A stretch of DNA of 64,000 nucleotides from Acidobacteriota bacterium (lineage in GTDB: Bacteria > Acidobacteriota > Vicinamibacteria > Vicinamibacterales > SCN-69-37). Below, in pieces: positions 19,928 to 64,000 of this stretch (position 1 is the first letter of the stretch; each line of letters opens with the position of its first letter). Made by a program: the position numbers and the translations under genes. The stretch is taken from the NCBI GenBank assembly GCA_013203475.1, contig JABMNV010000189.1:19217-83216 (forward strand). The letters run 5' to 3'. The notes under the pieces are model-generated. The model worked only from the letters and a program-made list of their open reading frames with translations, was not told the origin of the DNA and ran no database searches.

Positions 19928-19985
19928 GATGTATTGACATCATTGTAGGGGACCGAGACCCTGCGCGTCTGATAGCCTTCGCTGC

Positions 19986-21875: not shown

Positions 21876-21896
21876 ACCCTGATACGGTGATCCCCT

Positions 21897-22808: not shown

Positions 22809-24271
22809 TGATTCATTCAATTAATCCGCGGACCGGAGACCAACGTCAGCCTGTTCAGGAATCGTCGCCCCTGGACGTTCACGCCGCAGTCGAACGCGCA
22901 GAGGCAGCCGCGCGGGGCTATGCCCAGTTGCCGTTAGCCACACGTGCGGCGTTTCTCAGAGCCGCGGCCGACGCCCTCGAGGCGAATCGTGTCGCCATCG
23001 TCGAGACCGCCGACTTCGAGACAGGCCTTGGGCCTGCTCGGTTCAATAGCGAATTAGGCCGAACGACGGGCCAGCTTCGGGCGTTTGCCGACGTGGTGGA
23101 AAAGGGGAGTTTTCAGGGTGTCATCCACACGCCCGCGGATCCGGCTGCCACGCCTCCGTGTCCAGACCTCCGGCGTCTGCTCATTCCCATTGGGCCCGTC
23201 GGCGTCTTTACGCCCAGCAACTTTCCACTCGCGTTCGGCGTGGCCGGTGGCGATACGGCGTCGGCGCTGGCCGCAGGATGCACGGTCGTCGTGAAGGGCC
23301 ATCCGTCTCACCCCAATTCGTCGGCCCTGACCGCGCAGGCGTTTGTTGCCGCTGCCACACAGGTGGGAGCGCCCGATGACACGTTGACGCTGGTGCAGGG
23401 ACGTGCGCCCGAAGTGTCTCAGGCTCTGGTGAATGCCCCGGGCATCCGTGCGATTGCGTTCACCGGATCTGAGAGGGTTGGACGACTGCTGTACGACCTG
23501 GCCGCCGCGCGCGCAGAGCCAGTGCCGTTTTACGGCGAGCTGGGTAGTCTCAATCCGGTGTTCGTTGGAGCTGCGGCCGCGTCGGCGCGAGGTGCTGACA
23601 TTGCCAAGGGACTTGTCGCATCAATGACGTTGGGTTCGGGCCAGTTCTGTACAAAGCCCGGCGTCGTGTTTGTGCCGACCGGTCCGACAGGCGACGCGGT
23701 GGTGGCGTCGATGGTCGCCGCCGTCGCGACGCTTGAGCCTGCCGTCCTGCTCAACGAAGGCCTGCAGACCTCGCTCAACTCAAAGATCGCCGCCAGTCGC
23801 GGCGTCAGCGGTGTGAGCGAGTCGGTGGCCACAGTCCAGGTGCCGGACGCAGGATGCTTTGCTGCGCCACGGATGTTTGTTGTGGACGTGCGAACCTTCT
23901 TCGCGAGCCCGGCCCTTCGCGAAGAACACTTCGGTCCGGTCTCAATCGTCGTCCGATGCCATGCCGACGAAATGGCCGTCGCGGCGACCAACTTTGATGG
24001 CCAGTTGACCGCCACCATTCATGCCGACGCCGGCGATCTTGAGTGGGCGACCAAACTGCTTCCGGTGCTGGTGGACAAGGCCGGACGGATTGTCTGGAAC
24101 GGATATCCGACTGGCGTCTCGGTCGTGCCGGCCATGCACCATGGCGGTCCGTATCCGGCCAGCACCAACTCGTTGCACACGTCGGTGGGGACGACGGCCA
24201 TTCGGCGGTTCTTGCGGCCGGTCACGTTTCAGGACGTTCCGGAGGCGCTGCTGCCGTCCGCGCTCACCTAG
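22808..24271 (+). CDS. NAD(P)+-dependent aldehyde dehydrogenase, alpha-ketoglutaric semialdehyde dehydrogenase-like
   Basis: 487 aa. Catalytic Glu in YGELGSLNP and Cys in GSGQFCTKPG, with the KGHPSHP motif. Length and N-terminus are typical of the KGSADH subgroup. Confidence 0.85.
   Translation: MIHSINPRTGDQRQPVQESSPLDVHAAVERAEAAARGYAQLPLATRAAFLRAAADALEANRVAIVETADFETGLGPARFNSELGRTTGQLRAFADVVEKGSFQGVIHTPADPAATPPCPDLRRLLIPIGPVGVFTPSNFPLAFGVAGGDTASALAAGCTVVVKGHPSHPNSSALTAQAFVAAATQVGAPDDTLTLVQGRAPEVSQALVNAPGIRAIAFTGSERVGRLLYDLAAARAEPVPFYGELGSLNPVFVGAAAASARGADIAKGLVASMTLGSGQFCTKPGVVFVPTGPTGDAVVASMVAAVATLEPAVLLNEGLQTSLNSKIAASRGVSGVSESVATVQVPDAGCFAAPRMFVVDVRTFFASPALREEHFGPVSIVVRCHADEMAVAATNFDGQLTATIHADAGDLEWATKLLPVLVDKAGRIVWNGYPTGVSVVPAMHHGGPYPASTNSLHTSVGTTAIRRFLRPVTFQDVPEALLPSALT
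23325..23376 (+). repeat. Source copy of a 52-nt perfect direct repeat (inside the ALDH gene)
   Basis: ccctgaccgcgcaggcgtttgttgccgctgccacacaggtgggagcgcccga is identical to 25389-25440. It encodes LTAQAFVAAATQVGAP in both places. Confidence 0.95.
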
Positions 24272-26795: not shown

Positions 26796-27086
26796 TCAGG
26801 TGAGATACCGCTCAATCTCGAGCGCGCCGTGCAACACCCCGAGCACATCGATGTCGCGACTTGGCCTGATGAGATATGCGATGCGGTAATGACCGTAGAG
26901 CAGAATCCGAATATCACGATCGTCTCGGTAGCGATGACCGACCTCCGGGAAGGTCAACAGGATCTGGGCTCGCTGGTGAATGGCAGTCACGATCCGGTGG
27001 GCGGCGTCCGCATTGTTGGTTGCGATGTACTCGTGAATATCCTTCAACCAGCGCTGGGCTTCAGCCGTCCAGACTATTTCCGCCAC
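26796..27086 (-). CDS. parE: ParE/RelE-family toxin
   Basis: MAEIVWTAEAQRWLKDIHEYIATNNADAAHRIVTAIHQRAQILLTFPEVGHRYRDDRDIRILLYGHYRIAYLI...IDVLGVLHGALEIERYL. Confidence 0.85.
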   Translation of the reverse strand: MAEIVWTAEAQRWLKDIHEYIATNNADAAHRIVTAIHQRAQILLTFPEVGHRYRDDRDIRILLYGHYRIAYLIRPSRDIDVLGVLHGALEIERYLT

Positions 27087-27271
27087 GACTCGATGGTCCG
27101 CTTCATCGTGTCGTGCGACACCGTCCGACCGGCGTCGGCGTCCGCGAGCCCGCGGTCGACCATTCGGGCGAAGGCCAGTTCGCGAAGCAATTCATCGTAC
27201 GAACTGTCATCGGGTTGTTTGTCGATCAGTTCGATCATCTGGGCTTTCGGGGTGGCTACCTGTCCGCTCAT
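27074..27271 (-). CDS. Cognate antitoxin (65 aa)
   Basis: ATG at 27271 (MSGQVATPKAQMIELIDKQPDDSSYDELLRELAFARMVDRGLADADAGRTVSHDTMKRTIESWRK). Overlaps the parE start by 13 nt. Confidence 0.65.
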   Translation of the reverse strand: MSGQVATPKAQMIELIDKQPDDSSYDELLRELAFARMVDRGLADADAGRTVSHDTMKRTIESWRK

Positions 27272-27351
27272 GCCGACATTGTAGCCCGCACCACGACTCA
27301 GCGCAGGCCCCCCAAGGGTCGAAGAAAGGCACCGAATTCCAAGGCTGTACC

Positions 27352-27480
27352 GGTGCTCCCCCGCGATCTGCAACCCGCGAATATCAAGGTCCGAGCCGAT
27401 GGCACCGTCGACAAGCGCAGCGACTTGTGGGCATTCGCCGTCGTGCTGCTCGAGATGCTGACGGGCCGTCGCGTCGTCGA
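27352..27480 (+). pseudogene. Ser/Thr protein kinase remnant (catalytic loop to helix F, internally deleted)
   Basis: VLPRDLQPANIKVRADGTV (HRDLKPxN-type loop) is joined directly to SDLWAFAVVLLEMLTGRR. The DFG...APE segment is missing, with no N- or C-terminal parts. Confidence 0.5.
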
Positions 27481-27503
27481 CGTGCCCGTCGGTCAACCGC
27501 CCG

Positions 27504-40545: not shown

Positions 40546-41475
40546 ATGGAGATAGTGTTGGTCCAGATGGCAGCGTATTACCCCATTCGAGCCGTGTCGA
40601 AGCTCACCGGCATCAGCCCAGACACCCTGCGTGCCTGGGAGCGCCGCTATCAGGCCGTCCAGCCAGACCGATCCGGGCGAGGCCGCAGGTACGGCGAGCA
40701 GGAAGTGGCGCGATTGCGGCGCCTCAATCAGCTGGTTCATCGCGGTCACGCCATCGGCGGCATTGCCGTGCTGAGCGACGATGCGCTGGATGAACTGCTG
40801 GCAACGCCGGCAGCGCCGACAGAAGTTGACAAGCGTGGGACAGCGCTCCCTACTGACCTGCTGGCGGGGGTCTTGTCGGCGATTACCGACTTTGACTCCG
40901 CGCGTGCCAACGACGAGCTGACGCGGTTGGCCGCCGTGCTGGCTCCAAAGGACTTCGTCTATCAGGCTGTGCTGCCGCTCATGCGGGAGGTCGGCACGCG
41001 CTGGCACGACGGACGATTGACAGTGGCTCAGGAACACCTGGTGTCGCAAATGCTCCGCAATCTGTTGGGCAGCCTCATGCGCCTCTATCGTTCTTCAACG
41101 TCGTCGCGCCGCATGATTGTTGCGACGCCGGCCGGTGAGTCACATGAGTTCGGCGCTCTGGCGGCGTCCATGCTCGCCGCGATTGCCGGTATCGACGTGC
41201 TGTGCCTCGGCGCCGATCTTCCGGCGGAGGAGACCGCCCGGGCCGCCCGCAGGAGTGCGGCGTCGGTCGTCCTGTACGGCATCACCGTCGTGAACGACCG
41301 GACACTTGACGAGGTGGAGTCGCTTGCGCGCGCGATGCCCGAGACCACCACGCTGTGGCTGGGGGGCGCCGGGGTGGCGTCTCTCGATCTGTCTGCATTA
41401 GAGCGCCCCGCTGTTGTGCTTCGCGATCTCTCCGAGTTCGAAGACGAGTGTCGGCGATGGAGTCTTGTGAGATGA
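40546..41475 (+). CDS. MerR-family regulator with a C-terminal B12-binding domain (CarH/LitR-type light sensor), paralog 1
   Basis: Mer[28 protein letters not shown]. Wx9EH motif in [17 protein letters not shown]. Lower-ligand motif ESHEFG (ExHxxG). Probable true start ATG 40567. Confidence 0.8.
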
Positions 41476-46722: not shown

Positions 46723-47675
46723 CGGGGACTCAGCGCTTTCGGGTACGGCTGGAAGTAGACCTGGTTGTCCAGCCAGTCGCCCACATCGTGTGTGCGCAGG
46801 TAGTGGACCAGCAGCGTGAGCGGTGCGATCACGCCATGGAGTCCGGTGCGGTAGTCATCAATCAGCACCAGCAGTTCCTGTTTCTCGGCCGGCGTCAGCG
46901 CATCCTTGAAGTAGCCCATGATGTGCTGCAGAACGTTGGCCTGTTTGCCAGGCGTGGCGCGGTCACCCAGGGCGGCCATCGCCAGCGCCGTATACTCGCG
47001 CAGCGTCTCGGTCAGCGGCCGGTCGGCCACGCCCGCCACCAACCGGCCCAGTTGCCGGTACTTCACCGGACTGTGTGCCATGTAGAGCAGCTTGTGCGCC
47101 GAGTGAAAGGCGATCAGGTTGCCGCGCGACGGAGCGTTCAGCAGCGATGTCCGCATCCGATGGTGGGTGAAGATGCGGTCGAGGAAGCACTCGCGCAATC
47201 CCGCATCCACCAGCCAGCCCTCTTCGGCCAATGGCAACGCCGGCAGCCGATCGCGCAAGTGCGCCGCGAACAGGCCGGTGCCATCGCGACCCGGGGGACC
47301 GGCGTCGCCCTCCTTGTAGACACGTACGCGCGCCAGCCCGCAACTGGGAGAGTCCTTCTTCAGGACGAAGCCATCGAGATCGGCGGCGGCCAACTCGGCC
47401 ACGCGTGCGGCGGAGTAGGTCGACATGCTCTCTGTGCTGTCCTTGCCACTCTTGTTGCCGACGAGCTTCAGGCCCAATGGCCCCGTGATGAGGCGCAGGG
47501 ATTCACGCGGCACCGGCATGCCGGATTCAAGTTCGGGACATACAGGAACAAATTCGACGAACCGGCTCAGGGTGTCGTGCACGAAGTCGTGTTTCTTGTG
47601 CCCGCCGTCGAACCGGACCTGGCGGCCGAGCAGGCACGCGCTGACGCCGATGCGCGGACGAGATTCCGTCGTCAT
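46719..47675 (-). CDS. DUF523 plus DUF1722 protein (YbgA-like)
   Basis: Start ATG 47675 (MTTESRPRIGVSACLLGRQVRFDGGHK...). The C-terminal half carries LIAFHSAHKLLYMAHS...HIMGYFK, typical of DUF1722. E. coli ybgA is the gene upstream of phr. Confidence 0.8.
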   Translation of the reverse strand: MTTESRPRIGVSACLLGRQVRFDGGHKKHDFVHDTLSRFVEFVPVCPELESGMPVPRESLRLITGPLGLKLVGNKSGKDSTESMSTYSAARVAELAAADLDGFVLKKDSPSCGLARVRVYKEGDAGPPGRDGTGLFAAHLRDRLPALPLAEEGWLVDAGLRECFLDRIFTHHRMRTSLLNAPSRGNLIAFHSAHKLLYMAHSPVKYRQLGRLVAGVADRPLTETLREYTALAMAALGDRATPGKQANVLQHIMGYFKDALTPAEKQELLVLIDDYRTGLHGVIAPLTLLVHYLRTHDVGDWLDNQVYFQPYPKALSPR

Positions 47676-48478
47676 GCCGCCACCTCGGTGAGGTACTGAT
47701 GGAACCGGGCGAACGACGTCAGTCGAACGCCGTACGACAGCGTCTCCGGCCATGCGCCGTTGCCCCCCAGCACCAGGCGCACGTTGTGGGCACGGCACGC
47801 CGCGCCCAGGTCATCGGCCAACTGGGCCAGGTCTGCCTGGTTCGTCAGGGCAACGGAGGCTGACACCACCACCAGGTCCACGTCACCCTCCCCTACCAGC
47901 CGACTCACTTCAGCCACCGGCGTGCGACGCCCCAGCCACACTGGACTCACGCCCACTTCGCGCAAGCAGAGTTCTGCCAGCGACAGCCCCAGTGTATGGT
48001 CATCGTCTCCCGCGCACACAATCAGGGACCGCTTCCCACCCAGGCGCACCGGCAAGGTGTCGCCAATGCGCGTCAACGACCGAAGCAACGCATCGGAGGC
48101 CACATGTTCTTCGGCGATGGTGAGCTGACCGGACACCCATCGACGCCCCATCTCAGCGAGCACACCGCCAATTTCATCGGCCACCCGGAACCAACCGCCG
48201 AGCCGGCCGCGGGCTTCCAGCAAACGACTGTCGATGTCGTAGCGCTGGCCGTGGGTCAGGACCCGAATCCACGAGTCACTCGGCGAAGCGTCTCCGGATG
48301 ACGCCCGAGCCTGGCCGCGCACGTATTCCTCAATCGCAAATCGCTCAAACCGCCGATGGCCACCGGCGGTGCGGGAAAACGGCAAAATGCCCTCGTCTGC
48401 CCAACGCTTGATGGTGGACGGAGCCACGGCCGCCAGCTTGGCCGCCTCGGTCGTGGTGAGCATCGAGTCCGATGTCAT
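47672..48478 (-). CDS. MerR-family regulator with a B12-binding domain (CarH/LitR-type light sensor), paralog 2
   Basis: Start ATG 48478 (MTSDSMLTTTEAAKLAAVAPSTIKRWADEG). Wx9EH in RWVSGQLTIAEEHVASD. Canonical DDHTLG (DxHxxG). Confidence 0.8.
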   Translation of the reverse strand: MTSDSMLTTTEAAKLAAVAPSTIKRWADEGILPFSRTAGGHRRFERFAIEEYVRGQARASSGDASPSDSWIRVLTHGQRYDIDSRLLEARGRLGGWFRVADEIGGVLAEMGRRWVSGQLTIAEEHVASDALLRSLTRIGDTLPVRLGGKRSLIVCAGDDDHTLGLSLAELCLREVGVSPVWLGRRTPVAEVSRLVGEGDVDLVVVSASVALTNQADLAQLADDLGAACRAHNVRLVLGGNGAWPETLSYGVRLTSFARFHQYLTEVAA

Positions 48479-50127: not shown

Positions 50128-52170
50128 CTACCAGATGTGGATGCGCGCCTCGGGTGCCAGATAGAGCGCGTCGCCTTCTTTGACGTCGAACGCGGCGTAC
50201 CAGGCGTCCACGTTACGGACAATGCCGTTCACGCGGAAGTAGGGCGGACTGTGGGGGTCGGTCAGCAGGCGCTGCCGCATCGCGCCCTCGCGGGTCTTCG
50301 ACTGCCACGCCTGCGCAAAGGCCAGGAAGAAGCGCTGGTCGCCTGTCAGTCCGTCGATGACGGGTGCCGCACCGTGCTTGGCCTGGTAACGCTGATAGGC
50401 CGCATACGCCATCTCCACGCCACCCAAGTCCCCGATGTTCTCGCCCATGGTCAGCGCGCCGTTGATCTTCACGCCAGGAATCGGCTCGTACGCGTTGTAC
50501 TGATAGCCGAGCGAAGACGTGCGCTGGGCGAACGCTTCCTTGGCGGCGGGCGTCCACCAGTTGGTGTATTTGCCGCTGCCGTCGAACTGGCTGCCCTGAT
50601 CATCGAAGCCGTGACCGATTTCGTGGCCGATGACGGCACCGATCGCGCCGTAGTTCACGGCCGGATCCGCCTTCGGATCGAAGAACGGCGGCTGCAGGAT
50701 GGCCGCCGGGAACGTGATCTGGTTCAGCAGCGGGTTGTAGTACGCGTTCACCGTTTGCGGCGTCATGTCCCAGAGCGACCGGTCCACCGTCTTGCCGAGC
50801 CGCGAGAGTTGAAGGTGCCACTCGAATTCGCCGGAGCGCGTCGCGTTGCCGAGCGGGTCGGCGCGATCGACCGTCAACGACGAATAGTCAATGTACGTGT
50901 CCGGATGACCGATGCGCGGATCGAAGGCGATGAGCTTGGCGAGCGCCTTCTCTTTGGTCGAGTCATCCATCCAGCTGTTGGCGGTCAGGCGCTCTTCAAG
51001 TGCGCCTCGCAGGTCAGTGATGAGCTCGGCCATCTGGGCCTGGCTCTCTGCCGGATAGTGTCGCGCCACATAGATTTCACCGACGGCTTCGCCCAGCGCG
51101 CCATTGACGAACTGCACGCCACGCTTCCAGCGTTCGCGCTGCTCCGGCACGTCATTCAACGTCTTGGAGAAGAAGGCGAAGCTCGCTTCGTCAAACGCCT
51201 TCGGCAGCACGTTGGCGTGGTCGCTGACAAAGCGGAAGGCCACCCAGTCTTTCCAGGTCTGCAGCGGCGTCGAGGTCAGCATCTTCCCGGTCGCGGTGAT
51301 GGCCGTGGTCTCGGCCATGATCACGGTCGGAATGTCGCCCAGGCCGAGCTCGTTCATGATCAGGTTCCAGTCGAACTGGGGCGCCAGCTTCGCCATTTGC
51401 GCCCGGTCCATGGGGTTGTAGATGGCCTGAATGTCCCGCGAGCGCTCCGGCGCCCAATGCTCCTTCGCCAACGCGGTTTCAAGCGCGACGATGGCGTCGG
51501 CCTTGGTCGCGGCGTCAGGGATGCCGGCTAACTCCTGAATGTGGACGGCATAGTCGCGATAGGCTTTGCGAAACGCGTCATATTTCTCACCCTCCAACAG
51601 GTAGTAATCGCGACCACCCATGGTCAAACCGTCCTGGAAGGCGGCGGCGATGTAGCGTGTCGGATCAGCAAAGTCGGGCAGGATTCCAATGCCCAAGGGT
51701 GCCGCGTACCCCACGGTGGCGAAGAGCACCTGCAGGTCGGTGAGATCCTTCACGGCGGCGATCTTCGCGAGATGTGGTTCGAGAGAAGTGGTGCCGCGGG
51801 CCTCGATGGCTGCCTCGTCCATCCAACTCGCGTACATGTCGCCAATCTGCTTGCCGCTGGCGCCATAGAGATCCGGCTTTGCCGCCAGGTCTGTCATCAG
51901 ATCGCGGACCTGCTGTTCAGCCTGGTCTGCCAGGATGACGCCGACGCCGGCGGATGTGCGGTCAGCGGCGATCTCCGTGCGGTCGTTCCAGGCGCCGTTG
52001 GCGAATGTCCAGAAATCGTCGCCCGGCTTGGTGTCGGCCTTCTGGGCCGTCAGATCGACGCCGAACGCGCCGTAGCGCGGTCCCTCCGCCGGGGCCTCCT
52101 GGGCGCACGCCGTGATGGCGCACGCAAGTGTCATGGCGGTCGACAGGCGAACGAGAATTCCGACTTTCAT
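50128..52170 (-). CDS. pepO: M13-family zinc metallo-endopeptidase (PepO / endothelin-converting-enzyme-like), lipoprotein or secreted
   Basis: VIGHEIGHGFDDQG (HExxH), ENIGDLGG (ExxxD), and the C-terminal W. N-terminus LACAITAC is a lipobox-like signal. Confidence 0.9.
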   Translation of the reverse strand: MKVGILVRLSTAMTLACAITACAQEAPAEGPRYGAFGVDLTAQKADTKPGDDFWTFANGAWNDRTEIAADRTSAGVGVILADQAEQQVRDLMTDLAAKPDLYGASGKQIGDMYASWMDEAAIEARGTTSLEPHLAKIAAVKDLTDLQVLFATVGYAAPLGIGILPDFADPTRYIAAAFQDGLTMGGRDYYLLEGEKYDAFRKAYRDYAVHIQELAGIPDAATKADAIVALETALAKEHWAPERSRDIQAIYNPMDRAQMAKLAPQFDWNLIMNELGLGDIPTVIMAETTAITATGKMLTSTPLQTWKDWVAFRFVSDHANVLPKAFDEASFAFFSKTLNDVPEQRERWKRGVQFVNGALGEAVGEIYVARHYPAESQAQMAELITDLRGALEERLTANSWMDDSTKEKALAKLIAFDPRIGHPDTYIDYSSLTVDRADPLGNATRSGEFEWHLQLSRLGKTVDRSLWDMTPQTVNAYYNPLLNQITFPAAILQPPFFDPKADPAVNYGAIGAVIGHEIGHGFDDQGSQFDGSGKYTNWWTPAAKEAFAQRTSSLGYQYNAYEPIPGVKINGALTMGENIGDLGGVEMAYAAYQRYQAKHGAAPVIDGLTGDQRFFLAFAQAWQSKTREGAMRQRLLTDPHSPPYFRVNGIVRNVDAWYAAFDVKEGDALYLAPEARIHIW

Positions 52171-52499
52171 CCGTCTCTCCTCAGGTCGGTGGTGCGACGA
52201 ACCACTACCTTAGGTGGGCCTTTCGGGGGATGTCAACGTTGACTCGTGGGTGGTGTAAGATGCCGGACTATGAGAGGGTCCCAGCGTCAGATGGATGGGG
52301 CGGCCCCGTCCGGTTCCTACACACCGGGCGACCTGGAGGTCGAGGCCTTGATCCTTGCTGCAACGAACCACCCCTTGGGCACACAGTTCCTGATTGGAGG
52401 CTGCCTGGGTACGGTGGCCATCACGTTTCATGTGCATTCGTTCACAGTCGAGGCGGCGCGACGGCGCCTCTGTGCACACACGGAGGGTCACTAGACACG

Positions 52500-53483
52500 A
52501 TGACGCTTCCGATGTCAGTGATCACCTGTGAATGCTGGGCGCGAGATGGGTTGCAGTCGATGCCCATGCTCGTCTCGACCGATCACAAAGTCGAGATGAT
52601 CAATCGTGTCATCGGGGCCGGCTTCAAGAAGCTCGAAATCACGTCGTTCTCTCATCCGAAACTCCTGCCGCAGTTTGCCGACGCGGTGGAGGTCCTCAAA
52701 CGCATCGATCGGCGTCCGGACGTCTCGTACGTCGTCCTCATGCCCAACACCAAGGGATTCAACCGACTGGAAGTCTGCCAGAAGGAAGGCTACGGGGCGA
52801 CCGAGATCATCCTCATGATTTCGTCCAGCGAAGCGCACAACCTGCTGAACTTCCGGATGACTCACGCGCAGGCGATGGCCGAACACGCGGCGATCATGGC
52901 GCGCGCGCACGCACTGGGCATTCGTGTCATCGGGTGCGCGGGTACCGTGTTCGGCTGTCCCGTTCAGGGTGATTTGACGACGGCCGATGTGGCCAAGATC
53001 GTGAAGTTCTATCTTGACGAGGGCGCGCAGTCCATCATGTTGGGCGACACCACCGGGGTCGCGAATCCTCGGTTGGTGCGTGAGCGGGTCGGCGAGTTGA
53101 TGGCCCAGTTCCCAGCTGCGGAGTTCATCGCCCACTTCCACAATACGCGCGGCACAGGCATGGCCAACACGCTGGCGATGCTTGAGCTTGGCGTACGTTA
53201 CGTTGACGGCTCGATTGGTGCGATTGGCGGCCAACCGGCCACCGGCGCGGCGAAATACTCGGCCGGGTTCACGGGCAATACGTGCACCGAAGATCTCATC
53301 GCGATGCTGGCTGAAATGGGCGTGGACACTGGCGTCGATCTGCCGAAGTTGCTTGAGGCGGGCGGTCGGGCCGAAGCTATTCTCGGTCAGCGCCTTCGCT
53401 CGAATACCCTCCGCAGCGGACCAGCGATTCACGTTCCGTCGGCGGCGGACAAGGAAACCGACGCCGCGATCGAGACGCGCTGA
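52500..53483 (+). CDS. HMG-CoA-lyase-like (HMGL/DRE-TIM) family lyase
   Basis: Start ATG 52500 (MTLPMSVITCECWARDGLQS...). ITSFSHPK, LGDTTGVANP and FIAHFHNTRGTGMAN are metal/substrate blocks. Confidence 0.8.
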   Translation: MTLPMSVITCECWARDGLQSMPMLVSTDHKVEMINRVIGAGFKKLEITSFSHPKLLPQFADAVEVLKRIDRRPDVSYVVLMPNTKGFNRLEVCQKEGYGATEIILMISSSEAHNLLNFRMTHAQAMAEHAAIMARAHALGIRVIGCAGTVFGCPVQGDLTTADVAKIVKFYLDEGAQSIMLGDTTGVANPRLVRERVGELMAQFPAAEFIAHFHNTRGTGMANTLAMLELGVRYVDGSIGAIGGQPATGAAKYSAGFTGNTCTEDLIAMLAEMGVDTGVDLPKLLEAGGRAEAILGQRLRSNTLRSGPAIHVPSAADKETDAAIETR

Positions 53484-53507
53484 CCCCGTGTTAGCATCGA
53501 CGCCAGA

Positions 53508-53936
53508 ATGGGACAAACCTACCAGTCAATCGTTATCAACGCTCCCGTCGACGACGTGTGGAATCGTCTCAAGGATTTCCACGACTTGTCCTGGGCGCCC
53601 AACGTCATCACGAGCGTCGATAAGGTCGGTGACAAGAACGGCACCGATATCGGTGCCAAGCGCATACTCAACGGCGCCTTTCACGAGACCCTGCTCGAGT
53701 TGCACGACGACAGCCACACCCAGGTCTATAGCATCGACGACGGCCCGCCTCCCGTGTCGAAGGCCGATGTCGTGAACTACGTCGGCCGCGTCGAGTGTCA
53801 CGCGGAGACAGAAGGCGGCGGTACGTTCGTGGCGTGGTCCTCCAAGTGGGACAATGCCGACGGAGGCGCGGCTGATTTCTGTCACAACGTGTGCGTGGCC
53901 CTCCTTGGGGACCTCAAGAAGTCGCTTGAGCCGTGA
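53508..53936 (+). CDS. SRPBCC-superfamily small protein
   Basis: SIVINAPVDDVWNRLKDFHDLSWAP... shows the Bet v1-like pattern. The stop overlaps the next start (GTGA, 53933-36). Confidence 0.7.
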   Translation: MGQTYQSIVINAPVDDVWNRLKDFHDLSWAPNVITSVDKVGDKNGTDIGAKRILNGAFHETLLELHDDSHTQVYSIDDGPPPVSKADVVNYVGRVECHAETEGGGTFVAWSSKWDNADGGAADFCHNVCVALLGDLKKSLEP

Positions 53937-55084
53937 AGATCCTCCGTGCTCGCACTACGGTCGTGGGCACGCCGTGGCGGGAGCTTGTCTTTCTAGAGCT
54001 CGAATCTGACACGGGCCTGATCGGCACCAGCGAAGTGCGCATGGTCAGCCGCACCGACACGCTGCTGGCGTGTATTGACGAGTTGGCACCGCGCCACGTC
54101 ATTGGGGCTGACCCGTTCGATGTCGAGCGGTTGGCGTGGAACATCCAGCGCGCGGAGTACGACCGGCCTGGAGAAGTCTCGCAGTCGGCGCTGGCGTGTT
54201 TCGACGTGGCCTGCTGGGACCTCATGGGCCAGTCGCTCGGCGTGCCTGTCTGGAAGTTGCTCGGTGGCAAATTCCACGAGCGTGTGCCTGCCTATGCCAA
54301 CGGCTGGTATCAGGCCGAGCGCGATCCGTCGGCGATCGCCGCGCTCGCCACCGCCGTCGTCGCGAAGGGCTACCGAGGCCTGAAGCTGGATCCCTTCGGG
54401 CATGCCAGCGCCGAACTGTCCTCGGCCGACCGTCGACATGCGATGGCGATCGTGGGTGCCGTGCGCGACGCGGTTGGGCCGGATGTGCAGCTCATGCTGG
54501 AGATGCACGGCCGGTTTACGCCATCGACGGCGGCGATTGTGGCGAAGGCGTTGGAGCCCTTTGAGCCGGAGTGGATCGAAGAGCCCACGCCGCCTGAAAA
54601 CGCCCTCGCGTATCGCGCGGTGCGCAACGCGACTCATCTGCCGATTGCCACGGGCGAGCGCGCGCATGTGATGGAAGACATGCGCGGGTTTATTGAGGGT
54701 GGTTTGGTTGACATCGTGCAGGTGGACCTGACGCATTTTGGTGGATTCCTGCCGATGAAACGCCTCGCCGGGTGGGCCGATCTGTACGCGCTGAACCTGG
54801 CACCCCACAACGTGTGCGGCCCGGTTGGCACGATGGCGAACCTGCACTTTGCCGTGGCAACGCCCAACTACAAGGTGCTGGAACATTTCAACGACTTCGC
54901 TGATTCCTGGGTGCACGAATTGGTGGACCACTCACCGCGTATTGATCCTGCCGACGGCTGTTTTGTCGCGCCCGATCGGCCAGGGCTGGGCCTCGCTCTC
55001 AATCATGAGGCGTGCGCTCGTCATCCCCGCACGGGCGGCCGCATCAAACTGTTTGAAGAGGGCTGGGAGCGACGACAGGAGTAG
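53933..55084 (+). CDS. Enolase-superfamily dehydratase (mandelate racemase/muconate lactonizing enzyme family; sugar-acid dehydratase-like)
   Basis: ACFDVACWDLMGQSLGVPVWKLLGG, GYRGLKLDPFG, LMLEMHGRF, WIEEP, IATGER and VDIVQVD are metal-ligand and catalytic blocks. Confidence 0.85.
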   Translation: MKILRARTTVVGTPWRELVFLELESDTGLIGTSEVRMVSRTDTLLACIDELAPRHVIGADPFDVERLAWNIQRAEYDRPGEVSQSALACFDVACWDLMGQSLGVPVWKLLGGKFHERVPAYANGWYQAERDPSAIAALATAVVAKGYRGLKLDPFGHASAELSSADRRHAMAIVGAVRDAVGPDVQLMLEMHGRFTPSTAAIVAKALEPFEPEWIEEPTPPENALAYRAVRNATHLPIATGERAHVMEDMRGFIEGGLVDIVQVDLTHFGGFLPMKRLAGWADLYALNLAPHNVCGPVGTMANLHFAVATPNYKVLEHFNDFADSWVHELVDHSPRIDPADGCFVAPDRPGLGLALNHEACARHPRTGGRIKLFEEGWERRQE

Positions 55085-55088
55085 TCCG

Positions 55089-55970
55089 TTGGACGTTGAA
55101 CTCGCACTCGACATCAGAACCGAACTGGGTGAAGGCCCGCTGTGGGACGACCAACGACAGCGCCTGTTGTTTGTCGACATCATGCAGGGCCACGTGCATG
55201 AGTTCGATCCCGTGACGGGCGCTCATCGCACAGTCGCGTTCCCCTGGTCCGTTGGTGCGGTGGCGCTCTGCGCAGATGGTGGGTGGTTGCTCGCGGCTGC
55301 CGACGGGTTCTATCGCGCCGATCCGAACACGGGCGCGACGAGCCTGGTGGCGGCGGTGGAAGCAGCCTTGCCCGGCAACCGCATGAATGATGGCTACGTG
55401 GACTCGCGTGGTCGCTTCTGGGCCGGCACCATGGGGATGACCACGATAGGTATGAAAAAAGTGCGCAATGCCGGCACACTCTATCGCCTGGATTCTGACA
55501 CCTCGGTTCATGCGATGGTGACCGAGGTGTCCACGTCCAACGGGATCGACTGGAGCCTCGACAACCGAACGGCCTATTACATCGACACGCCAACCGGACG
55601 CGTCGATCAGTTCGACTTTGATCTGGACGCGGGCACAGTGTCCAACCGTCGCCCCTTTGCTGAGATCGCCCCAGACGATGGCTCCCCAGATGGCCTCATC
55701 GTTGATGCGGAAGGATTCGTCTGGGTCTGCCTGTGGCGAGGGAGTGCCGTACGTCGGTACGCACCTGACGGCCGGCTGGACATGGTCATTGCCATCCCTG
55801 CGGCGCAAACGACCAAGTGTGCCTTTGGTGGTCCTGATTTGGATGAGTTGTTCATTACTTCCGCGTGGATTGGATTGACCGACCAGGAACGCGCGGCCCA
55901 GCCTCTGGCCGGCGGTCTGTTTCGTTGTCGGCCCGGCGTCAAAGGCCGGGTACCGAACCGATGGTCATAA
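55089..55970 (+). CDS. SMP-30/gluconolactonase/LRE-family lactonase
   Basis: ELGEGPLWDDQRQRLLFVDI, NRMNDGYVDSRGRFWAGTM, SNGIDWS and PDGLIVDAEGFVWVC. The start is uncertain: TTG 55089 is the first candidate after the upstream stop. Confidence 0.8.
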   Translation: MDVELALDIRTELGEGPLWDDQRQRLLFVDIMQGHVHEFDPVTGAHRTVAFPWSVGAVALCADGGWLLAAADGFYRADPNTGATSLVAAVEAALPGNRMNDGYVDSRGRFWAGTMGMTTIGMKKVRNAGTLYRLDSDTSVHAMVTEVSTSNGIDWSLDNRTAYYIDTPTGRVDQFDFDLDAGTVSNRRPFAEIAPDDGSPDGLIVDAEGFVWVCLWRGSAVRRYAPDGRLDMVIAIPAAQTTKCAFGGPDLDELFITSAWIGLTDQERAAQPLAGGLFRCRPGVKGRVPNRWS

Positions 55971-56088
55971 CGCGCCTTATTGGGCGGTGAGCCGACGCGC
56001 ATGGTCGGCGGCGACCTGACGAAGGTCATCAGCCACCCGCACGCGGCGTTCCGGTGAGAAACACGACGTTGTATTGTTAATGAAACAA

Positions 56089-57597
56089 TTACTTGCTCGC
56101 CGTGGCCGATCGAATAAATGACACAAGGTCCTTCTTCAGGGCCGCGTGTGCCGACGGGCGGATGTACATCATGTGTCCGCCTTCGTAGTAGCCGTACGAC
56201 ACACGGTCGGTGATCTGGCGGTCATAGGCCAGGTGCGTGAGGTTGAACTCGGCGCCACCGACGTACGTGGCCATGTCGTAGTACCCACTCACCAACATCA
56301 ACTTCAGGAACGGATTAATTGCCATGGTTTGGCGCAGTGCGTCCGTGGTGTCCATGTAGCGGTTCTGGACGTAGGTCCATGGCCGCACGTCGCCCGACGT
56401 CGGATACCGCAAGTCTGAATCCCACTTCAGTTCGTTCTTGATGTAGTCCTGGAACATCGCCACGTAGGCGCCCTTGAGCGCCGTGTTCGACGGATCGAAT
56501 TCCTGACTCTCGCCGGCCGCATCCAGATCGAGGGCGGTAAACCGGCTGTCGAGTCGCCCGACGACCAGGCGCTGGTCGCGCAGCAGTTCTTTGCGGAACC
56601 GCCCAGAACTCACTCTGAGGTTCGCCGAGAGGATGAACTCGGACGACAAGCCGGTGAATTCCGCCAGCCGTCCCGCCATCACGCGGCGCTCCGCGTCAGT
56701 CAGCGTATTCCCTTTGGTGAGCGCCAGCATGTAGTCGCCCAGCGCGAAAACTTTGGCCTCAGCGACCACGTCCTTGAGCGCCTTTTGTTGCAGCTCAGGG
56801 CCGAGCTTCTTGTGATACCACGCCGTCGCCGCAAAGGTCTGGATCTGCACCGCCCAGGCGATGTCGTTGTTCGGTGCCGGGGACAACGTCTGGTACGTCA
56901 ACAGCGCAGACAACAGCACGACGCCATTCAGTTCGACGCCATGTCTGGCCTGCAGGTCCTGGGCGAGCCCACCAGACCGAATCGTCCCGTAGCTTTCGCC
57001 GATCAGGAATTTCGGCGACGGCCAACGGTTGTACGCCTTGAGATAGCCCGCGATGAAATCGCCAAACGCGGTGATGTCGCCGTCCTGACCATGGAACTGG
57101 GCATTGTCAGTGCCCGCCGTGGCACGGCTGTAGCCGGTGTCGATAGCGTCCACGAACACCAGGTCCGACTCGTCGATCAATGAGTTGGGATTGTCGACTA
57201 ACTGATACGGTGGCGCCGGCTGAAAGCCTTCGTCCGCCATCTTGACGACGCGCGGGGCAAAGGATCCCATGTGCAGCCACACTGACGCTGACCCCGGACC
57301 GCCGTTGAAGAGGAATGAGACCGGCCGCGTGGCCGGGTCTGCGTCGTCTCTGGTATACGCGACAAAGAACATGCGTGCCGCCACGTCTCCACCGACCGAC
57401 CGGATCGGAATCGTTCCCGCAGTGGCCGTGTAGGCAATGTCCTGACCACCAAGGCGCATTGTGTGTGACGTTGCGGATGCTGGCGTATCGTCGGCGGCTG
57501 CCACTTCGTGTCGCGCGGCCGGTGCTTGTTGCGCGGTGAGCGAGGGCACGAGCGCCGTGATTGCGACGACGGCGGCAGCGAAGAATCGTTTCATCAT
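56089..57597 (-). CDS. Secreted S10-family serine carboxypeptidase
   Basis: Signal peptide. FLFNGGPGSASVWLHMG and FLIGESYGT (nucleophile Ser), with a C-terminal GGHMMY. Confidence 0.85.
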   Translation of the reverse strand: MMKRFFAAAVVAITALVPSLTAQQAPAARHEVAAADDTPASATSHTMRLGGQDIAYTATAGTIPIRSVGGDVAARMFFVAYTRDDADPATRPVSFLFNGGPGSASVWLHMGSFAPRVVKMADEGFQPAPPYQLVDNPNSLIDESDLVFVDAIDTGYSRATAGTDNAQFHGQDGDITAFGDFIAGYLKAYNRWPSPKFLIGESYGTIRSGGLAQDLQARHGVELNGVVLLSALLTYQTLSPAPNNDIAWAVQIQTFAATAWYHKKLGPELQQKALKDVVAEAKVFALGDYMLALTKGNTLTDAERRVMAGRLAEFTGLSSEFILSANLRVSSGRFRKELLRDQRLVVGRLDSRFTALDLDAAGESQEFDPSNTALKGAYVAMFQDYIKNELKWDSDLRYPTSGDVRPWTYVQNRYMDTTDALRQTMAINPFLKLMLVSGYYDMATYVGGAEFNLTHLAYDRQITDRVSYGYYEGGHMMYIRPSAHAALKKDLVSFIRSATASK

Positions 57598-58571
57598 GGC
57601 GGGTCTCCTTGTGTTGATGGCGTGGTGTCGAGCGTGTTGCGAATCGCGGTGTAAAACGTCTCGCCGATGAGGCGAAGGCCTTCCTCGGTTGGATGGAGGT
57701 CGTCGGCGCCGACGTATCGATCGATGTCGGCATTCATCGCCGAGAAGACGTCAACCAGCGTGGCGCCTCGTCGATCGGCGAGCGACCGGATCTCGTCGTT
57801 GAACCGGGGAATCCTCTCGGCGTTGTCGCCGTACGCGCCGCCCGCTCTGGCGGGAGAGATCGTAGCCAGAAAGACCACGACGCCCTGGCTCTGGGCGAGG
57901 CGAACCATGTCGTCGAGGCCGTCGATGGCCCGCACCCGATCAGCCGAGGTTCCAGCGACATCGTTCGTCCCTTCCATCAGCAACAGAACTTGTGGACGCT
58001 CGGAGGACAGCAATTCCGCCAACCGACTGAGTCCGTCTGCGGCTCTCTCTCCGTTCACCCCCTGAGTACTCACGGTGAACGTCTGAGCGGTGTATCGAGC
58101 GCTCAGGAGCTCTCCGAGACGCTCGGTGTACGGCGGACACGTGGTTGGCGACAGGCCGCAGCGGCCGAACGTAATGCTGTCACCAAAGGCGAGAAACGAG
58201 GTCTTCGAGATGCGAGGTGCGATGGAAACGGTGACGTTGAAGTTGCACGTCGCCTGACGGACCAGCGCGTCTGTAGCCGTGCATGTCACAACCGTGGATC
58301 CAACCGGGAAGTTCGCGCCCGGCGCTGCGGAACACGTCACCGCAACCGGCGCCTGGCCGCCGCTGGCGGCCGGCACGGCAAACGTCACCGGCACAGACAG
58401 GCCATCGAGTGAGGCGGCCTGCACAGAGGCGGGGCACGACACCGCGGGCGCTGCCGGGGTCGGCGGCGCGGGCGTTGTGGGAGACGACGAGCCGCACGCG
58501 GCCATCGCCATCACGCTGATTGAGAGAAAAAGTCGTTGAAATGTCCGCACAATATGAATCCGCGCGGCCAA
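57594..58571 (-). CDS. Lipoprotein: HYR/Ig-like N-terminal domain plus SGNH hydrolase domain (paralog 2)
   Basis: Lipobox SVMAMAAC. VSCPASVQAASLDGLSVPVTFAVPAASGG...VVTCTATDALVRQATCNFNVTV. FLAFGDSITFG, LLMEGTND and DDLHPTEEG. Confidence 0.8.
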   Translation of the reverse strand: MAARIHIVRTFQRLFLSISVMAMAACGSSSPTTPAPPTPAAPAVSCPASVQAASLDGLSVPVTFAVPAASGGQAPVAVTCSAAPGANFPVGSTVVTCTATDALVRQATCNFNVTVSIAPRISKTSFLAFGDSITFGRCGLSPTTCPPYTERLGELLSARYTAQTFTVSTQGVNGERAADGLSRLAELLSSERPQVLLLMEGTNDVAGTSADRVRAIDGLDDMVRLAQSQGVVVFLATISPARAGGAYGDNAERIPRFNDEIRSLADRRGATLVDVFSAMNADIDRYVGADDLHPTEEGLRLIGETFYTAIRNTLDTTPSTQGDPP

Positions 58572-58579
58572 TTCTATAG

Positions 58580-59608
58580 TCAGTCGCGGCCCAGCGCCTC
58601 CCCAGTGGGCGTATTGTCGAGGGCGTTGCGAATCGCGGCGTAAAAAATCTCGCCCATCCGACGCAGTCCCTCCTCGGTGGGGTGGAGATTGTCGGCGCCG
58701 ATGAGGGAGGGAATATCCGTCACCATCGCCGCGTAGACATCGACGAGCGTGGCGCCACGGCTGGCAGCGATTGCCCGGATGCCGTCGTTGAAACTGGGGA
58801 TCAGGCCGGCCACCACATCGCGGTTCGGTGTGCCCGCCGGTGCGGGAGATCGCTGCGGCGGAATCGTGGCCAGAAACACGATCACACCTTGGGCCTGCGC
58901 CGCTGTCGCCATACGGTCGAGGGCGCCGAGGGCGTGCTGGAAGGTCAGCGTCGGCGTCAGTGCGCCAAAAAAGAGGTCGTTCGCGCCTTCCATCAGGAGA
59001 AGCACCTCGGGCGAGTACCGCGCGAGCTCACTCGGAAGCCGATCTTGCCCCGCCAACCGGCCCAGCGGAATCGCAATATCGTCAGCGGCAATTTCTCCAG
59101 GAATCCCTACGTTCGTGATCGTAAACGTCTGGCTCGCATACCTGGCTTCAAGCAATTCGCGCAGGCGGACGGTGTAGGGCGGACACTCCGCAGGCGCGAT
59201 GTTGCAGCGACCAAATGTCAGGCTGTCACCGAATGCCAGGAACTTGGTCTTCAGGATGCTCGGCCGCGTCGCCACCGTCACAGTGAAACTGCAGACACCC
59301 TGCCGCTGAAACCCATCAGTGGCGGTGCAGGTGACGATCGTCGAGCCGAGAGGAAAAGTCGCACCGGGCTGTGCCGTGCACGTGACCGCCGAGACCGGCG
59401 CCTCTCCGCCTACCGCGGTCGGTACCGTGAATGTGACCGGGAGCGCGGCGCCAGTGACTGACTCCACCGTGATTGAGGCAGGACAGGACAGCGCGGGAGA
59501 GTTGGCCTGGACCAACGGGCCTGTCGGCTTCGATCCGCAGCTCGCCACGGCCAACAGGCTCAGCAACACGAATATGCGACAGGTGCAACGGGTGGTAGGC
59601 AATGGCAC
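58580..59608 (-). CDS. Lipoprotein: HYR/Ig-like N-terminal domain plus SGNH hydrolase domain (paralog 1)
   Basis: Lipobox LLAVASC. LSCPASITVESVTGAALPVTFTVPTAVGG...IVTCTATDGFQRQGVCSFTVTV. FLAFGDSLTFG, LLMEGAND and DNLHPTEEG. Confidence 0.8.
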   Translation of the reverse strand: MPLPTTRCTCRIFVLLSLLAVASCGSKPTGPLVQANSPALSCPASITVESVTGAALPVTFTVPTAVGGEAPVSAVTCTAQPGATFPLGSTIVTCTATDGFQRQGVCSFTVTVATRPSILKTKFLAFGDSLTFGRCNIAPAECPPYTVRLRELLEARYASQTFTITNVGIPGEIAADDIAIPLGRLAGQDRLPSELARYSPEVLLLMEGANDLFFGALTPTLTFQHALGALDRMATAAQAQGVIVFLATIPPQRSPAPAGTPNRDVVAGLIPSFNDGIRAIAASRGATLVDVYAAMVTDIPSLIGADNLHPTEEGLRRMGEIFYAAIRNALDNTPTGEALGRD

Positions 59609-59617
59609 AGCAAACTA

Positions 59618-60229
59618 TCAAAGACGACGGTCATCGGCAACTGAGTTTACGTCCATCCAGTCACGCACAGCATCGATGACGAGCCCAGAGACCGGCTTGT
59701 TTCGGGTCGCGACCAGAGAGTGATCGCCGCGCTCAACGAGCGACAGCGTTGACGTGGGCAGCTCATCAATCAAGTCCCGCATCTCCTCGCGCGTGCCGAA
59801 CGGATCTCGGGTGCCGTGGAGAAACAACATGGGGACGCCAATCAGCGGCAAGTGCCGATCGCGCCGCTGTTCGGGCTTGCCGGGCGGATGCAGGGGATAG
59901 CCGAAGAAGATGAGACCGGTCGGGATGGGATCAAAGCCGCCCTTGGCAGCGACCTGTGAGGCAATTCGGCCACCCATTGACTTGCCGCCCGCATACATCG
60001 GGCCAGTCGTGGTCGCGGCCACCTGGGCCCACTGTTCGGCGAACGCAGCTTCAAGGACAGGGCCCTTGTCGGGCAGTCGGCGTCCGCTGAACATATAGGG
60101 GAAGTCGAATCTCACCACGCGCACACCGCGGGATTCAAGCGCGGACGCCACGTGACTCATCCACGGATGCGCTGAGCCGGCGCCCGCTCCATGGGCCAGG
60201 ACGAGTGTCGGGTCAGCCATCAGGGCCAT
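59618..60229 (-). CDS. Alpha/beta-fold hydrolase (KANL3/Tex30-like small hydrolase family)
   Basis: LVLAHGAGAGSAHPWM, nucleophile elbow GGKSMGGR, and LFLHGTRDPFG...GDHSL. Confidence 0.75.
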   Translation of the reverse strand: MALMADPTLVLAHGAGAGSAHPWMSHVASALESRGVRVVRFDFPYMFSGRRLPDKGPVLEAAFAEQWAQVAATTTGPMYAGGKSMGGRIASQVAAKGGFDPIPTGLIFFGYPLHPPGKPEQRRDRHLPLIGVPMLFLHGTRDPFGTREEMRDLIDELPTSTLSLVERGDHSLVATRNKPVSGLVIDAVRDWMDVNSVADDRRL

Positions 60230-60255
60230 AAGAATATCAGCCGTCGCAGGGCTGG

Positions 60256-60272
60256 TTGATTTATGGAATCAA
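60256..60272. promoter_or_regulatory. Palindrome upstream of the ArsR-family gene (candidate autoregulatory operator)
   Basis: ttgatt-tatgg-aatcaa (60256-60272), with the direct repeat gatttatgga at 60258-67 and 60281-90. The second copy contains the ATG. Confidence 0.3.
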
Positions 60273-60285
60273 TGAATGTAGATTT

Positions 60286-61227
60286 ATGGATGTGAAAGAA
60301 GCATCTGCCCTCATGCGCCTGCTTGGCGACGAAGCCCGTCTGCGACTCTTGCGACTGCTGGCTCGTGAGGCCCTGAACGTCACTGAACTCACGGCGGTGA
60401 TGGGGTTGGCCCAGTCCGGGGTCTCACGGCACCTGGGCCTCCTCAAAGAGGCCAAGCTCGTCACCGAGGAGCGATCCGGCAACTTCACCTGGTACCGACT
60501 GAATTCCGACGTGCAGGCTGACGCTGGCGCCTACACCACCGTCTGGCCCTGGCTCAGCGCCACGTTTGACGCCGCCACCGCAGCGACGCGTGCAGACGAT
60601 GCCAGGCTGGAGGAAGTGCGACGACTGCGGCGAGAGAACTTCGACCAGCACGGGGGAGGCGACGAACGCAGCCAACTCGTGCCGGGCCGGAGTTGGGTGG
60701 CCTGGTCCCGCGCGCTGGGCTTGCTCCTGCCGGCCGTCGACGTGGCCGACCTGGGATGCGGAAGTGGGTACCTGACGATCGAAGCGGCGCACTGGGCCCG
60801 TCGGGTCTACGCTGTCGATCGGTCTGCGGATGTCCTGGCCCGCGCCAAACAGATGGCTCTGCGCCGCAAGGTGAAGAACATCACCTGGAAGCGCGGCGAA
60901 CTGGAAAAAGTGCCACTGGCAGACGAGTCGATCGACATCGCCATCGCGTCGCAGGCACTGCACCACGCACAAGAGCCCGAGACGGCCTTGTCCGAAGCCC
61001 TGCGAATTTTGCGGCCTGGTGGCCGACTGCTGGTGCTTGACCTCAGACAACACGACGAAGCCTGGGTGCAAGACACGCTTGGCGACCAATGGCTCGGCTT
61101 CAGCGCAAGCCAACTCGAAGCGCTCATCACGGCCGCGGGTTTTGAGAAGGTGACCGTACGCAGCGGCACCAAGAAGGCCGGCGACCCATTCGTCGTCTTA
61201 ATCGCGGCAGGAACACGACCATCATGA
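60286..61227 (+). CDS. ArsR-family HTH regulator fused to a class I SAM-dependent methyltransferase domain
   Basis: [59 protein letters not shown] (ArsR wHTH), plus [12 protein letters not shown]...[11 protein letters not shown] (MTase motifs I and post-I). The stop overlaps the metH start (ATGA, 61224-27). Confidence 0.8.
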
Positions 61228-64000
61228 CCACACTCGATCAATTGTTACGGGAACGTATCCTCGTGCTCGACGGCGCGATGGGCACGATGATTCAGCGTCG
61301 CAAGCTGACTGAAGCAGATTTTCGTGGCACTCGTTTTGCCTCCCACCCGCAGGACCTCAGGGGTAATAACGACGTCCTCACGCTGACACGGCCCGACGTG
61401 ATCGGCGCTATCCATCGCGAATACCTCGAGGCCGGTGCCGACATTATCGAGACCAACACGTTCAGTTCGAACGTCGTGTCGCAGCGCGACTACGGCCTCG
61501 AGTCTGCGGTCTACGACCTGAATCTGGAAGGCGCGCGTTTGGCCCGTGAGGCGGCCGACGAACTGACGGCGACGAACCCGTCAAAGCCACGCTTGGTGGC
61601 CGGCTCCATCGGGCCCACCACCTGCACATTGTCAATCTCGCCAGACGTCAACAGTCCCGCCTACCGCGCGCTGACGTTTGATCAACTCAAGGCCGGCTAC
61701 CTGGACCAGATTCGCGGCCTGATCGACGGCGGTGTCGACTTCCTTCTGGTTGAGACGGTCATCGACACGCTGAGCGTGAAGGCCGCGATCGTGGCCATCG
61801 AGGAAATTCAGGAAGAAAAGGGCGTCCGCCTGCCGCTCATGATCTCGGTCACTGTGACGGACCGCAGTGGCCGGACATTGTCCGGGCAGACCATCGACGC
61901 GTTCTACGTGTCCATCGAACATGCCCGCCCCTGGTGTGTGGGCATCAACTGCGCGCTGGGCGCCGCCGACATGCGTCCCTATCTCGAGGAACTCTCGCGG
62001 CAGGCCGAGTGCTGGGTGCACGCGTATCCCAACGCCGGCCTCCCCAACGCCTTCGGTGAATACGACGAACAACCGGAAGAGACCGGTCGGCTGCTGCGCG
62101 ACTTCGCCCAGAGTGGTTTCGCCAATATTCTCGGCGGCTGTTGCGGCACCACGCCCGAACACATCAGGGCCATTGCGAAGGCGGTCGATGGGCTTGCGCC
62201 GCGGCCCCGTCCGGAGCCAGCGCCAGCCGGTCATCTGACCCGTCTGGCTGGCCTTGAGCCGTTGGTCATTCGTCCCGACAGCAACTTTCAGATGGTCGGA
62301 GAACGGACAAACGTCACCGGTTCGAAGAAGTTTGCCCGCCTGATCAAAGACGACAACTGGACCGAGGCCGCGGCTGTCGCCGTTGAACAGGTCCGCGGTG
62401 GCGCGAATCTGATCGACGTGAACATGGACGAGGGCATGCTCGACTCGGAGCAGGCGATGACCACGTTCCTGAACTACATCGCGACGGAACCGGAAATCGC
62501 CCGTGTGCCTATCATGATCGACAGTTCGAAGTGGTCGGTCATCCAGGCTGGACTTCGCTGCGTCCAGGGCAAGTCCGTCGTCAACTCCATCTCGTTGAAA
62601 GAAGGGGAGGCCGACTTTCTGGAGAAGGCCAAAATCGTCAAACGTTTCGGCGCGGCGGCGGTCGTCATGGCCTTTGACGAGACCGGACAGGCAGATACCA
62701 CTGCACGGAAGGTGGCGATCTGCCAGCGCGCCTACAAGATCCTGACCGAGCAGGCCGGCTTTGATCCGTCCGACATCATCTTCGACCCGAACATTCTGGC
62801 GATCGCGACGGGCCTGGAAGAACACAACCGTTACGCCATCAATTTCATCGAAGCCACGCGCATCATCAAAGAGACGTGTCCCGGCGTGAAGATCAGCGGC
62901 GGCGTGAGCAACCTGTCGTTCTCGTTTCGCGGCAACGACGTGGTCCGCGAGGCCATTCACTCGGCGTTTCTGTTCCACGCGATCAAGGCCGGCCTCGATA
63001 TGGGCATCGTCAATGCCGGCCAGTTGATTGTCTACGAGGACATTCCCGCCGACCTCCTTGCACACGTTGAAGACATCCTCTTCGACAGACGCCCCGACTC
63101 AACCGAGCGGATGGTGACCTTCGCCGAGAGCGTGAGGGGTTCGGGCACCAAGCGGGAAACCGATCTGAAGTGGCGCGAGCAGCCGGTCGACAAACGCCTG
63201 GCCTACGCGCTGGTTCACGGTGTGGTCGACTTCATCGAGGTCGATACCGAAGAAGCCAGACAAACCTTCGCGCGTCCGCTGGAGGTCATCGAGGGGCCGC
63301 TCATGGACGGCATGAAAATCGTCGGCGACCTGTTTGGGGCGGGCAAGATGTTCCTGCCCCAAGTGGTCAAGAGTGCCCGAGCGATGAAGCGCGCCGTGGC
63401 CTACCTTGAGCCCTATATGGAGGCCGAGAAGGCCGCACATGTGGCGGCGGGTCATACGCTCAAGGCCCAGGGACGGGTCCTGATGGCCACGGTCAAAGGC
63501 GACGTGCTCGACATCGGCAAGAACATCGTTGGCGTCGTTCTCGGTTGCAACAACTACGAAGTGGTGGACCTGGGCGTGATGGTGTCCACCGACAAGATTC
63601 TGTCGACTGCAGTTGAGAAGAAGGTTGACATCGTTGGTGTCAGCGGCCTGATCACCCCGTCACTGGACGAGATGGTGTTTGTGGCCAAGGAGATGGAACG
63701 ACGCGGCATGACCCTGCCTCTGCTCATTGGTGGAGCGACCACCAGCCGTCAACACACGGCTGTCAAGATTGCGCCTGAGTACTCGGGCCCGGTCGTGCAT
63801 GTGCTCGACGCCTCGCGCGCAGTGGGCGTGGTGTCGAGTCTACTCAGTGACAGCAAGCGCGACGAGTACATCGCCGCCGTTCGAGTGGACCAGGCGGAGC
63901 TCCGTGAGAAGTACGCCACGCGGTCTCAACGGGCGTTGCTGACGTATGAGGAGGCCAGCAACAATCCGCTGACGACCGACTGGGATGTGGCCGAAGTTCC
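61224..64000 (+). CDS. metH: Cobalamin-dependent methionine synthase MetH, 3'-partial (runs off the window); absent from the supplied ORF track
   Basis: [24 protein letters not shown]..., [10 protein letters not shown], Zn site GINCALG and [12 protein letters not shown], pterin domain [10 protein letters not shown]..., cap EWR-type region, and the B12 domain [33 protein letters not shown]...LLIGGATTS. The frame is open from 61224 to 64000. Confidence 0.9.

Follow-up and report, generated by a model that had tools for sequence, protein, structure and literature searches.

A leucine codon at the cobalt-ligand position of an acidobacterial metH: a probable assembly artefact or very recent mutation

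We suggest that the metH gene at the end of the analysed stretch of acidobacterial DNA (64,000 nucleotides, referred to here as the window) is an ordinary His-on methionine synthase gene, and that the T at position 63508, which replaces the codon of the cobalt-ligating histidine by a leucine codon, is most likely a minority or erroneous read path in one long contig (probability about 0.6). Rather than marking a novel type of enzyme, the Leu codon most probably arose in assembly or by a very recent mutation. Even if the T is real, it is an unselected change without evolutionary depth and not an evolved His-off enzyme. As to its biology the gene is a textbook MetH, and the unusual residue is backed by a single contig only. 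The original prediction had offered three explanations for it. Two of them, a consensus error and a recent inactivation, are retained here. The third, a genuinely His-off MetH variant, is not borne out: every other assembly of the same population reads CAC at this codon, and His is kept in all 199 orthologues compared.

The metH gene, its ligand motif and its relatives

The part of the protein encoded in the window is 100% identical to P0001 (NQW05001.1, ‘methionine synthase’, 1225 aa), from an Acidobacteria MAG contig of 86,368 bp. P0001 is full length and carries the C-terminal AdoMet-binding activation domain (PF02965), which is located beyond the window; its residues 926–1225 are the same as in the conspecific proteins. 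The gene, from a Vicinamibacterales-like Acidobacteria MAG, encodes a canonical MetH that is complete, with 1225 aa and five domains. Apart from members of the same population, the nearest relatives of P0001 are Vicinamibacterales and other Acidobacteriota MetH proteins with 70–86% identity, all of them full length and with five domains. The coordinates of the domains, of the motif residues and of the neighbouring features are given in Table 1.

Table 1. Features of the metH region and related features of the window
Feature	Position	Strand	Remark
MerR-family regulator with B12-binding domain (CarH-like)	40546–41475	+	ESHEFG
MerR-family regulator with B12-binding domain (CarH-like)	47672–48478	−	DDHTLG
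ArsR-type HTH fused to SAM methyltransferase, upstream of metH	60286–61227	+	gene calls on conspecific contigs
metH, cobalamin-dependent methionine synthase	61224–64000	+	ORF from ATG at 61224; window ends inside the gene, with the first 925 of 1225 codons within
Homocysteine S-methyltransferase domain (S-methyl_trans, PF02574)	61260–62186	+	Pfam E = 1e-98
Pterin-binding (methyl-tetrahydrofolate) domain (Pterin_bind, PF00809)	62298–63014	+	Pfam E = 1.5e-61
B12 cap subdomain (B12-binding_2, PF02607)	63192–63410	+	Pfam E = 7.5e-24
B12-binding Rossmann subdomain (PF02310)	63471–63743	+	Pfam E = 2.6e-16
Most conserved 38 nt of the gene	63492–63529	+	with the His allele an exact inter-species repeat; k-mer sharing with 80 other species
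DxHxxG motif, read as D-V-L-D-I-G-K	63501–63521	+	gac gtg ctc gac atc ggc aag
Codon 762, CTC (Leu)	63507–63509	+	T at 63508 private to the window assembly; A (CAC, His) in all conspecific contigs
Ser813 codon tca, in ITPSLD (residues 810–815)	63660–63662	+	E. coli Ser810 of the His-Asp-Ser triad; intact
GG motif Gly836-Gly837, B12-binding fingerprint	63729–63734	+	intact

The order of the domains (Hcy, folate, cap, B12, activation) is the same as in E. coli MetH (1BMT, 3BUL, 3IV9), and the cap and B12 region aligns to it over 273 residues with E = 5e-103 (E = 3e-101 for 1BMT). The 19-residue core of the motif is identical in the two proteins apart from the ligand position. The Zn cysteines, which are Cys243 (INC), Cys306 and Cys307 (GGCCG) in the window protein, are conserved between them, as are the Asp, the Ser and the GG motif. 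At the ligand position E. coli MetH has His759, the window assembly has Leu and the conspecific alleles have His.

In both the methylcob(III)alamin and the cob(II)alamin state of MetH, cobalt has His759 as its lower ligand. In the phmmer alignment to the solved E. coli MetH fragments Leu762 falls exactly on this residue; at its column the chains of 1BMT and 3BUL read ‘vkgdvHdigkn’ and the engineered H759G chains of 1K7Y and 1K98 read ‘vkgdvGdigkn’. Thus, both the re-read codons and the alignment agree with the original prediction that the motif is DVLDIGK, with Leu in place of the cobalt-ligating His. The claim that the remaining ligand motifs of the B12 domain are intact holds for Asp760 and Ser813. 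It fails in the placement of the triad Ser within GGATTS, since the phmmer alignment to E. coli MetH puts this residue at Ser813 of ITPSLD.

The population to which the window belongs (≥99.9% nucleotide identity) was encountered in no fewer than 15 independent assemblies or runs, among them the ENA assemblies ERZ23486318, ERZ23486341, ERZ27051947, ERZ27052287, ERZ887845 and ERZ1283788, the NCBI and JGI assemblies GCA_041294345.1, GCA_041294365.1, 3300032736 and 3300074305, and the Logan runs SRR22440420, SRR28106091, ERR2206758, ERR2206759 and ERR13967255. This acidobacterial lineage is almost clonal and occurs widely.

In this population the codon was read base by base in seven contigs, and about 18 His-bearing contigs were counted via protein identity. 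Four of the seven (L081–L084, from ENA ERZ23486318, ERZ27051947 and ERZ887845 and from NCBI GCA_041294345.1) differ from window positions 51224–64000 by 4–5 mismatches in 12,777 nt (99.96–99.97% identity), and the change of T to A at 63508 is always among them; the other three (L085, L103 and L104) likewise have CAC. At the protein level the 90%-identity cluster of P0001 contains P0122 (1225 aa, 4 contigs), for which L762H is the sole difference from P0001, P0121 (10–11 contigs), which has L762H and P654L, and a JGI fragment, P0124, which starts with ‘VHDIGK’. The original prediction had named CAC in closely related genomes as an outcome that would refute it, and every other assembly of the population has CAC. 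The window protein is otherwise identical to a His-bearing allele over 1225 aa; hence nothing has co-evolved with the Leu and there is no compensatory change. The DxHxxG motif with His as the lower cobalt ligand is a mark of MetH proteins, and it is lost in the window contig. As the same gene reads DVHDIGK in all other assemblies of the population, this loss belongs to one contig and not to the lineage.

At position 63184, shortly ahead of the cap subdomain, metH is truly polymorphic in the population, with Pro654 in the window and in P0122 and Leu654 in P0121. Residue 654 is the only other polymorphic one seen in the metH of the population.

Outside the population the motif reads DVHDIGK in 119 of the 119 closest homologues of the window MetH, and the codon encodes His at all 80 loci from other species (79 CAC, one CAT). 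The alignment of orthologues proposed with the original prediction therefore gives His in every one of these 199 sequences, and among the sequences compared Leu is found in the window only. Scans of a metagenome contig collection with exact patterns around the codon (NNN at the codon itself) gave no match, and the population is absent from that collection.

The conserved 38 nt and the contig ends at the codon

With the His allele restored, exact 31-mers in common with many species are confined to positions 63492–63529 of metH, where up to 34 of the 80 species compared share a 31-mer; at k = 21 the number rises to 69. Across the codon itself, 34 of the 80 match exactly over 32 nt or more. The 21-mers that contain the T allele of 63508 are found in none of the 80 other species.

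Three conspecific contigs end within 70 nt of the Leu codon, and all of them have CAC. L103 (JGI 3300032736, Ga0335110_1169283, 82.8 kb) ends at 63574 and L104 (Logan SRR28106091_22133) ends at 63527. The third, L085, is from the JGI sample that also gave L103; its start is at 63504, and the two contigs have an overlap of 71 nt. L103 and L104 represent the haplotypes closest to the window: the look-up of neighbouring proteins shows that they also have the Gly allele of the lipase at 57829, which is otherwise private to the window. A simple bubble of two alleles at 63508 was considered as a source of the three ends. Their offsets from this position are −4, +19 and +66, and not one nucleotide before or after the SNP as a bubble would give. 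An inter-species repeat would account for the ends better, as far as can be judged from the sequences, and the breaks at the codon apparently follow from nucleotide conservation, with k-mers shared across species.

We suggest the following route to the Leu codon, whose basis is the k-mer sharing with 80 reference species and not the real assembly graph. Being the same in the metH of many co-occurring species, the 38 nt about the His codon would form a shared hub in the de Bruijn graph of the metagenome, at which contigs would normally break. The T at 63508 would give k-mers that are absent from the other species and would thereby link the upstream and downstream flanks unambiguously. An assembler that takes the T path would then produce a long contig, which is easier to bin, and a sequencing error or a rare variant could in this way be promoted to the consensus of the very contig that crosses the break.

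This bears on genome scans in general. The most conserved nucleotide stretches of universal genes are inter-species repeats in metagenome assemblies, and because such stretches act as repeats, private substitutions of catalytic residues in MAG contigs can be products of the assembler. Comparison with conspecific assemblies and with reads should come first when a singleton in an invariant catalytic position is to be given a functional reading.

Readings in which the allele is real

The strongest rival of the read-path explanation, which we regard as possible and clearly less probable, is a real and very young loss-of-function or strongly hypomorphic allele that is fixed or at high frequency in the sampled strain. 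By analogy with E. coli H759G, the L762 protein would bind cobalamin base-off/His-off, would be biased to the reactivation conformation and would be nearly inactive, and the cell would live on another methionine source, for example MetE or uptake. Against this reading, a metE-type domain is found neither among the genes of the 64 kb window nor in the 10 kb that follow downstream on conspecific contigs.

Should the Leu be real, its phenotype is at present best predicted from the E. coli H759G variant (1K7Y, 1K98). There, as with Leu762, a residue that does not coordinate cobalt stands in for the ligand His while the rest of the protein is wild type; the variant differs in being a laboratory construct with Gly, whereas the residue of the window is a bulkier Leu that would lie beneath the corrin. 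It is reportedly essentially inactive in turnover; we found no quantitative activity of H759G in the open-access literature. According to PMC10293825 the variant is constitutively His-off, shows strong flavodoxin binding and is proteolysed along the pathway typical of the reactivation conformation; this fits the reading of L762 as a loss-of-function allele. The variant also serves as a spectral reference for base-off/His-off cobalamin (PMC9401015). Going by this analogy, a real L762 allele would most likely be null or a strong hypomorph, with B12 still bound. The strain would then be a natural metH-null or hypomorphic one and would be moderately interesting with regard to methionine and B12 auxotrophy among soil or freshwater Acidobacteria.

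Other differences of the window contig lend this reading some weight. Conspecific contigs were compared over 62.2 kb of the window, and a SNP was called private when it was backed by at least two comparators. About 23 other private SNPs were found, of which 10 are nonsynonymous, 8 synonymous and 5 intergenic, with a transition to transversion ratio of 10:13. The differences among the other conspecific assemblies are alike (21 nonsynonymous vs 10 synonymous). As the divergence is tiny (about 0.05–0.1%), variation, whether real or artefactual, has scarcely been filtered by selection, so that a damaging change can show up without having a function.

The Logan contig L093 (SRR28106091) spans 15577–22909. 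It stops 1 nt before the private SNP at 22910 and begins 16 nt after the private SNP at 15561, as strain bubbles at these two sites in an independent assembly would have it. This suggests that both alleles co-occur as real strains in SRR28106091, that at least some of the private SNPs are real, and that SRR28106091 is close to the source sample. With real strains co-occurring, a private SNP of the window contig is probably real a priori. Against this stand the approximately 18 contigs of the same population that encode His, among them the two of the closest haplotype and contigs from what is apparently the same or a sister sample, and the location of the site on a putative assembly hub, where artefacts would be favoured.

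The only indel in the 62 kb compared is a private 8-nt deletion in the window at about 3642, where GTCGACGC is present in the conspecific contigs L099–L101; the site lies near the 3′ end of a Y2_Tnp transposase-like gene. Local assembly noise in the contigs of this population is exemplified by L089 (NCBI GCA_041294365.1), which in the part equivalent to window positions 19312–19336 has four substitutions in 25 nt, one of them to a stop, in a Peptidase_S41 gene. They occur in that conspecific assembly only.

Far less probable is a functional natural His-off MetH that turns over without a His lower ligand, like the CFeSP-type corrinoid proteins. The ORF is of full length, and the Zn cysteines, Asp760, Ser813, the GG motif and the activation domain are intact. 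Base-off/His-off methyl transfer does exist: CoFeSP, TsrM and QCMT perform methyl-Co(III)/Co(I) chemistry without a protein His ligand (PMC9401015). However, in these proteins the lack of His is conserved and stands in a different protein context, whereas the Leu of the window is a one-contig singleton in a His-invariant family. The absence of His that characterises natural His-off corrinoid methyltransferases is a trait of whole lineages, and here one Leu contig is set against about 18 His contigs of the same population. The allele thus has no evolutionary depth, its His-bearing counterpart differs at residue 762 alone, and the engineered H759G protein behaves as locked in the His-off state. 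We consider it similarly improbable that the T is real at high frequency and that the Leu762 enzyme is usefully active, either in slow His-off transfer or in a cobalamin-binding, reactivation-locked role. If it were, the allele would amount to a natural test of what the lower His ligand does in MetH.

Least probable of all is an older pseudogene that decays under relaxed selection in a lineage for which metH is dispensable: a catalytic residue is hit, but there are no frameshifts or stops, the intact 1225-aa ORF is 99.9% identical to the conspecific alleles, P654L is the one other polymorphic residue in the population, and the homologues with 70–86% identity are all full length. An ordinary pseudogene with a disrupted downstream part, an outcome allowed for in the original prediction, does not fit P0001 either, as this protein is intact to its end and differs from its His-bearing conspecific only at residue 762.

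Neighbourhood of metH and other features of the window

The upstream gene, which encodes the fusion of an ArsR-type HTH and a SAM methyltransferase, is translationally coupled with metH: its stop and the start of metH share 4 nt (ATGA). One of the nonsynonymous window-private SNPs, at 60505, lies inside this upstream gene. On the conspecific contigs another SAM methyltransferase, which is TehB-like, is encoded 144 nt downstream of metH (13822–14445 of L081). The surroundings of metH are a methyl-cycle-flavoured gene neighbourhood. A scan of the whole window against Rfam at the gathering threshold gave no RNA family, and thus no riboswitch upstream of metH.

Both CarH-type proteins of the window keep the His of their [DE]xHxxG motifs (Table 1), as had been predicted. 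They flank a cluster of two CMAS-type methyltransferases, a fatty-acid desaturase, an amino-oxidase/NAD-binding protein, DUF1365 and DUF1295, which is possibly a light- or B12-controlled lipid-modification cluster.

Contig ends of the population are found together at other places as well. At about 10,800–11,150 most conspecific contigs terminate beside IS-type genes (DDE_3, rve, HTH_23), and the window contig reads through. Another shared break point is at 49199, where both L096 and L097 end, with L104 starting at 49171.

Three toxin-antitoxin-like pairs are encoded in the window, at 18017–18576, 26796–27496 and about 6060–6700; according to Pfam and the gene calls on conspecific contigs they are PemK/RHH, ParE with its partner, and HigB/HTH_3.
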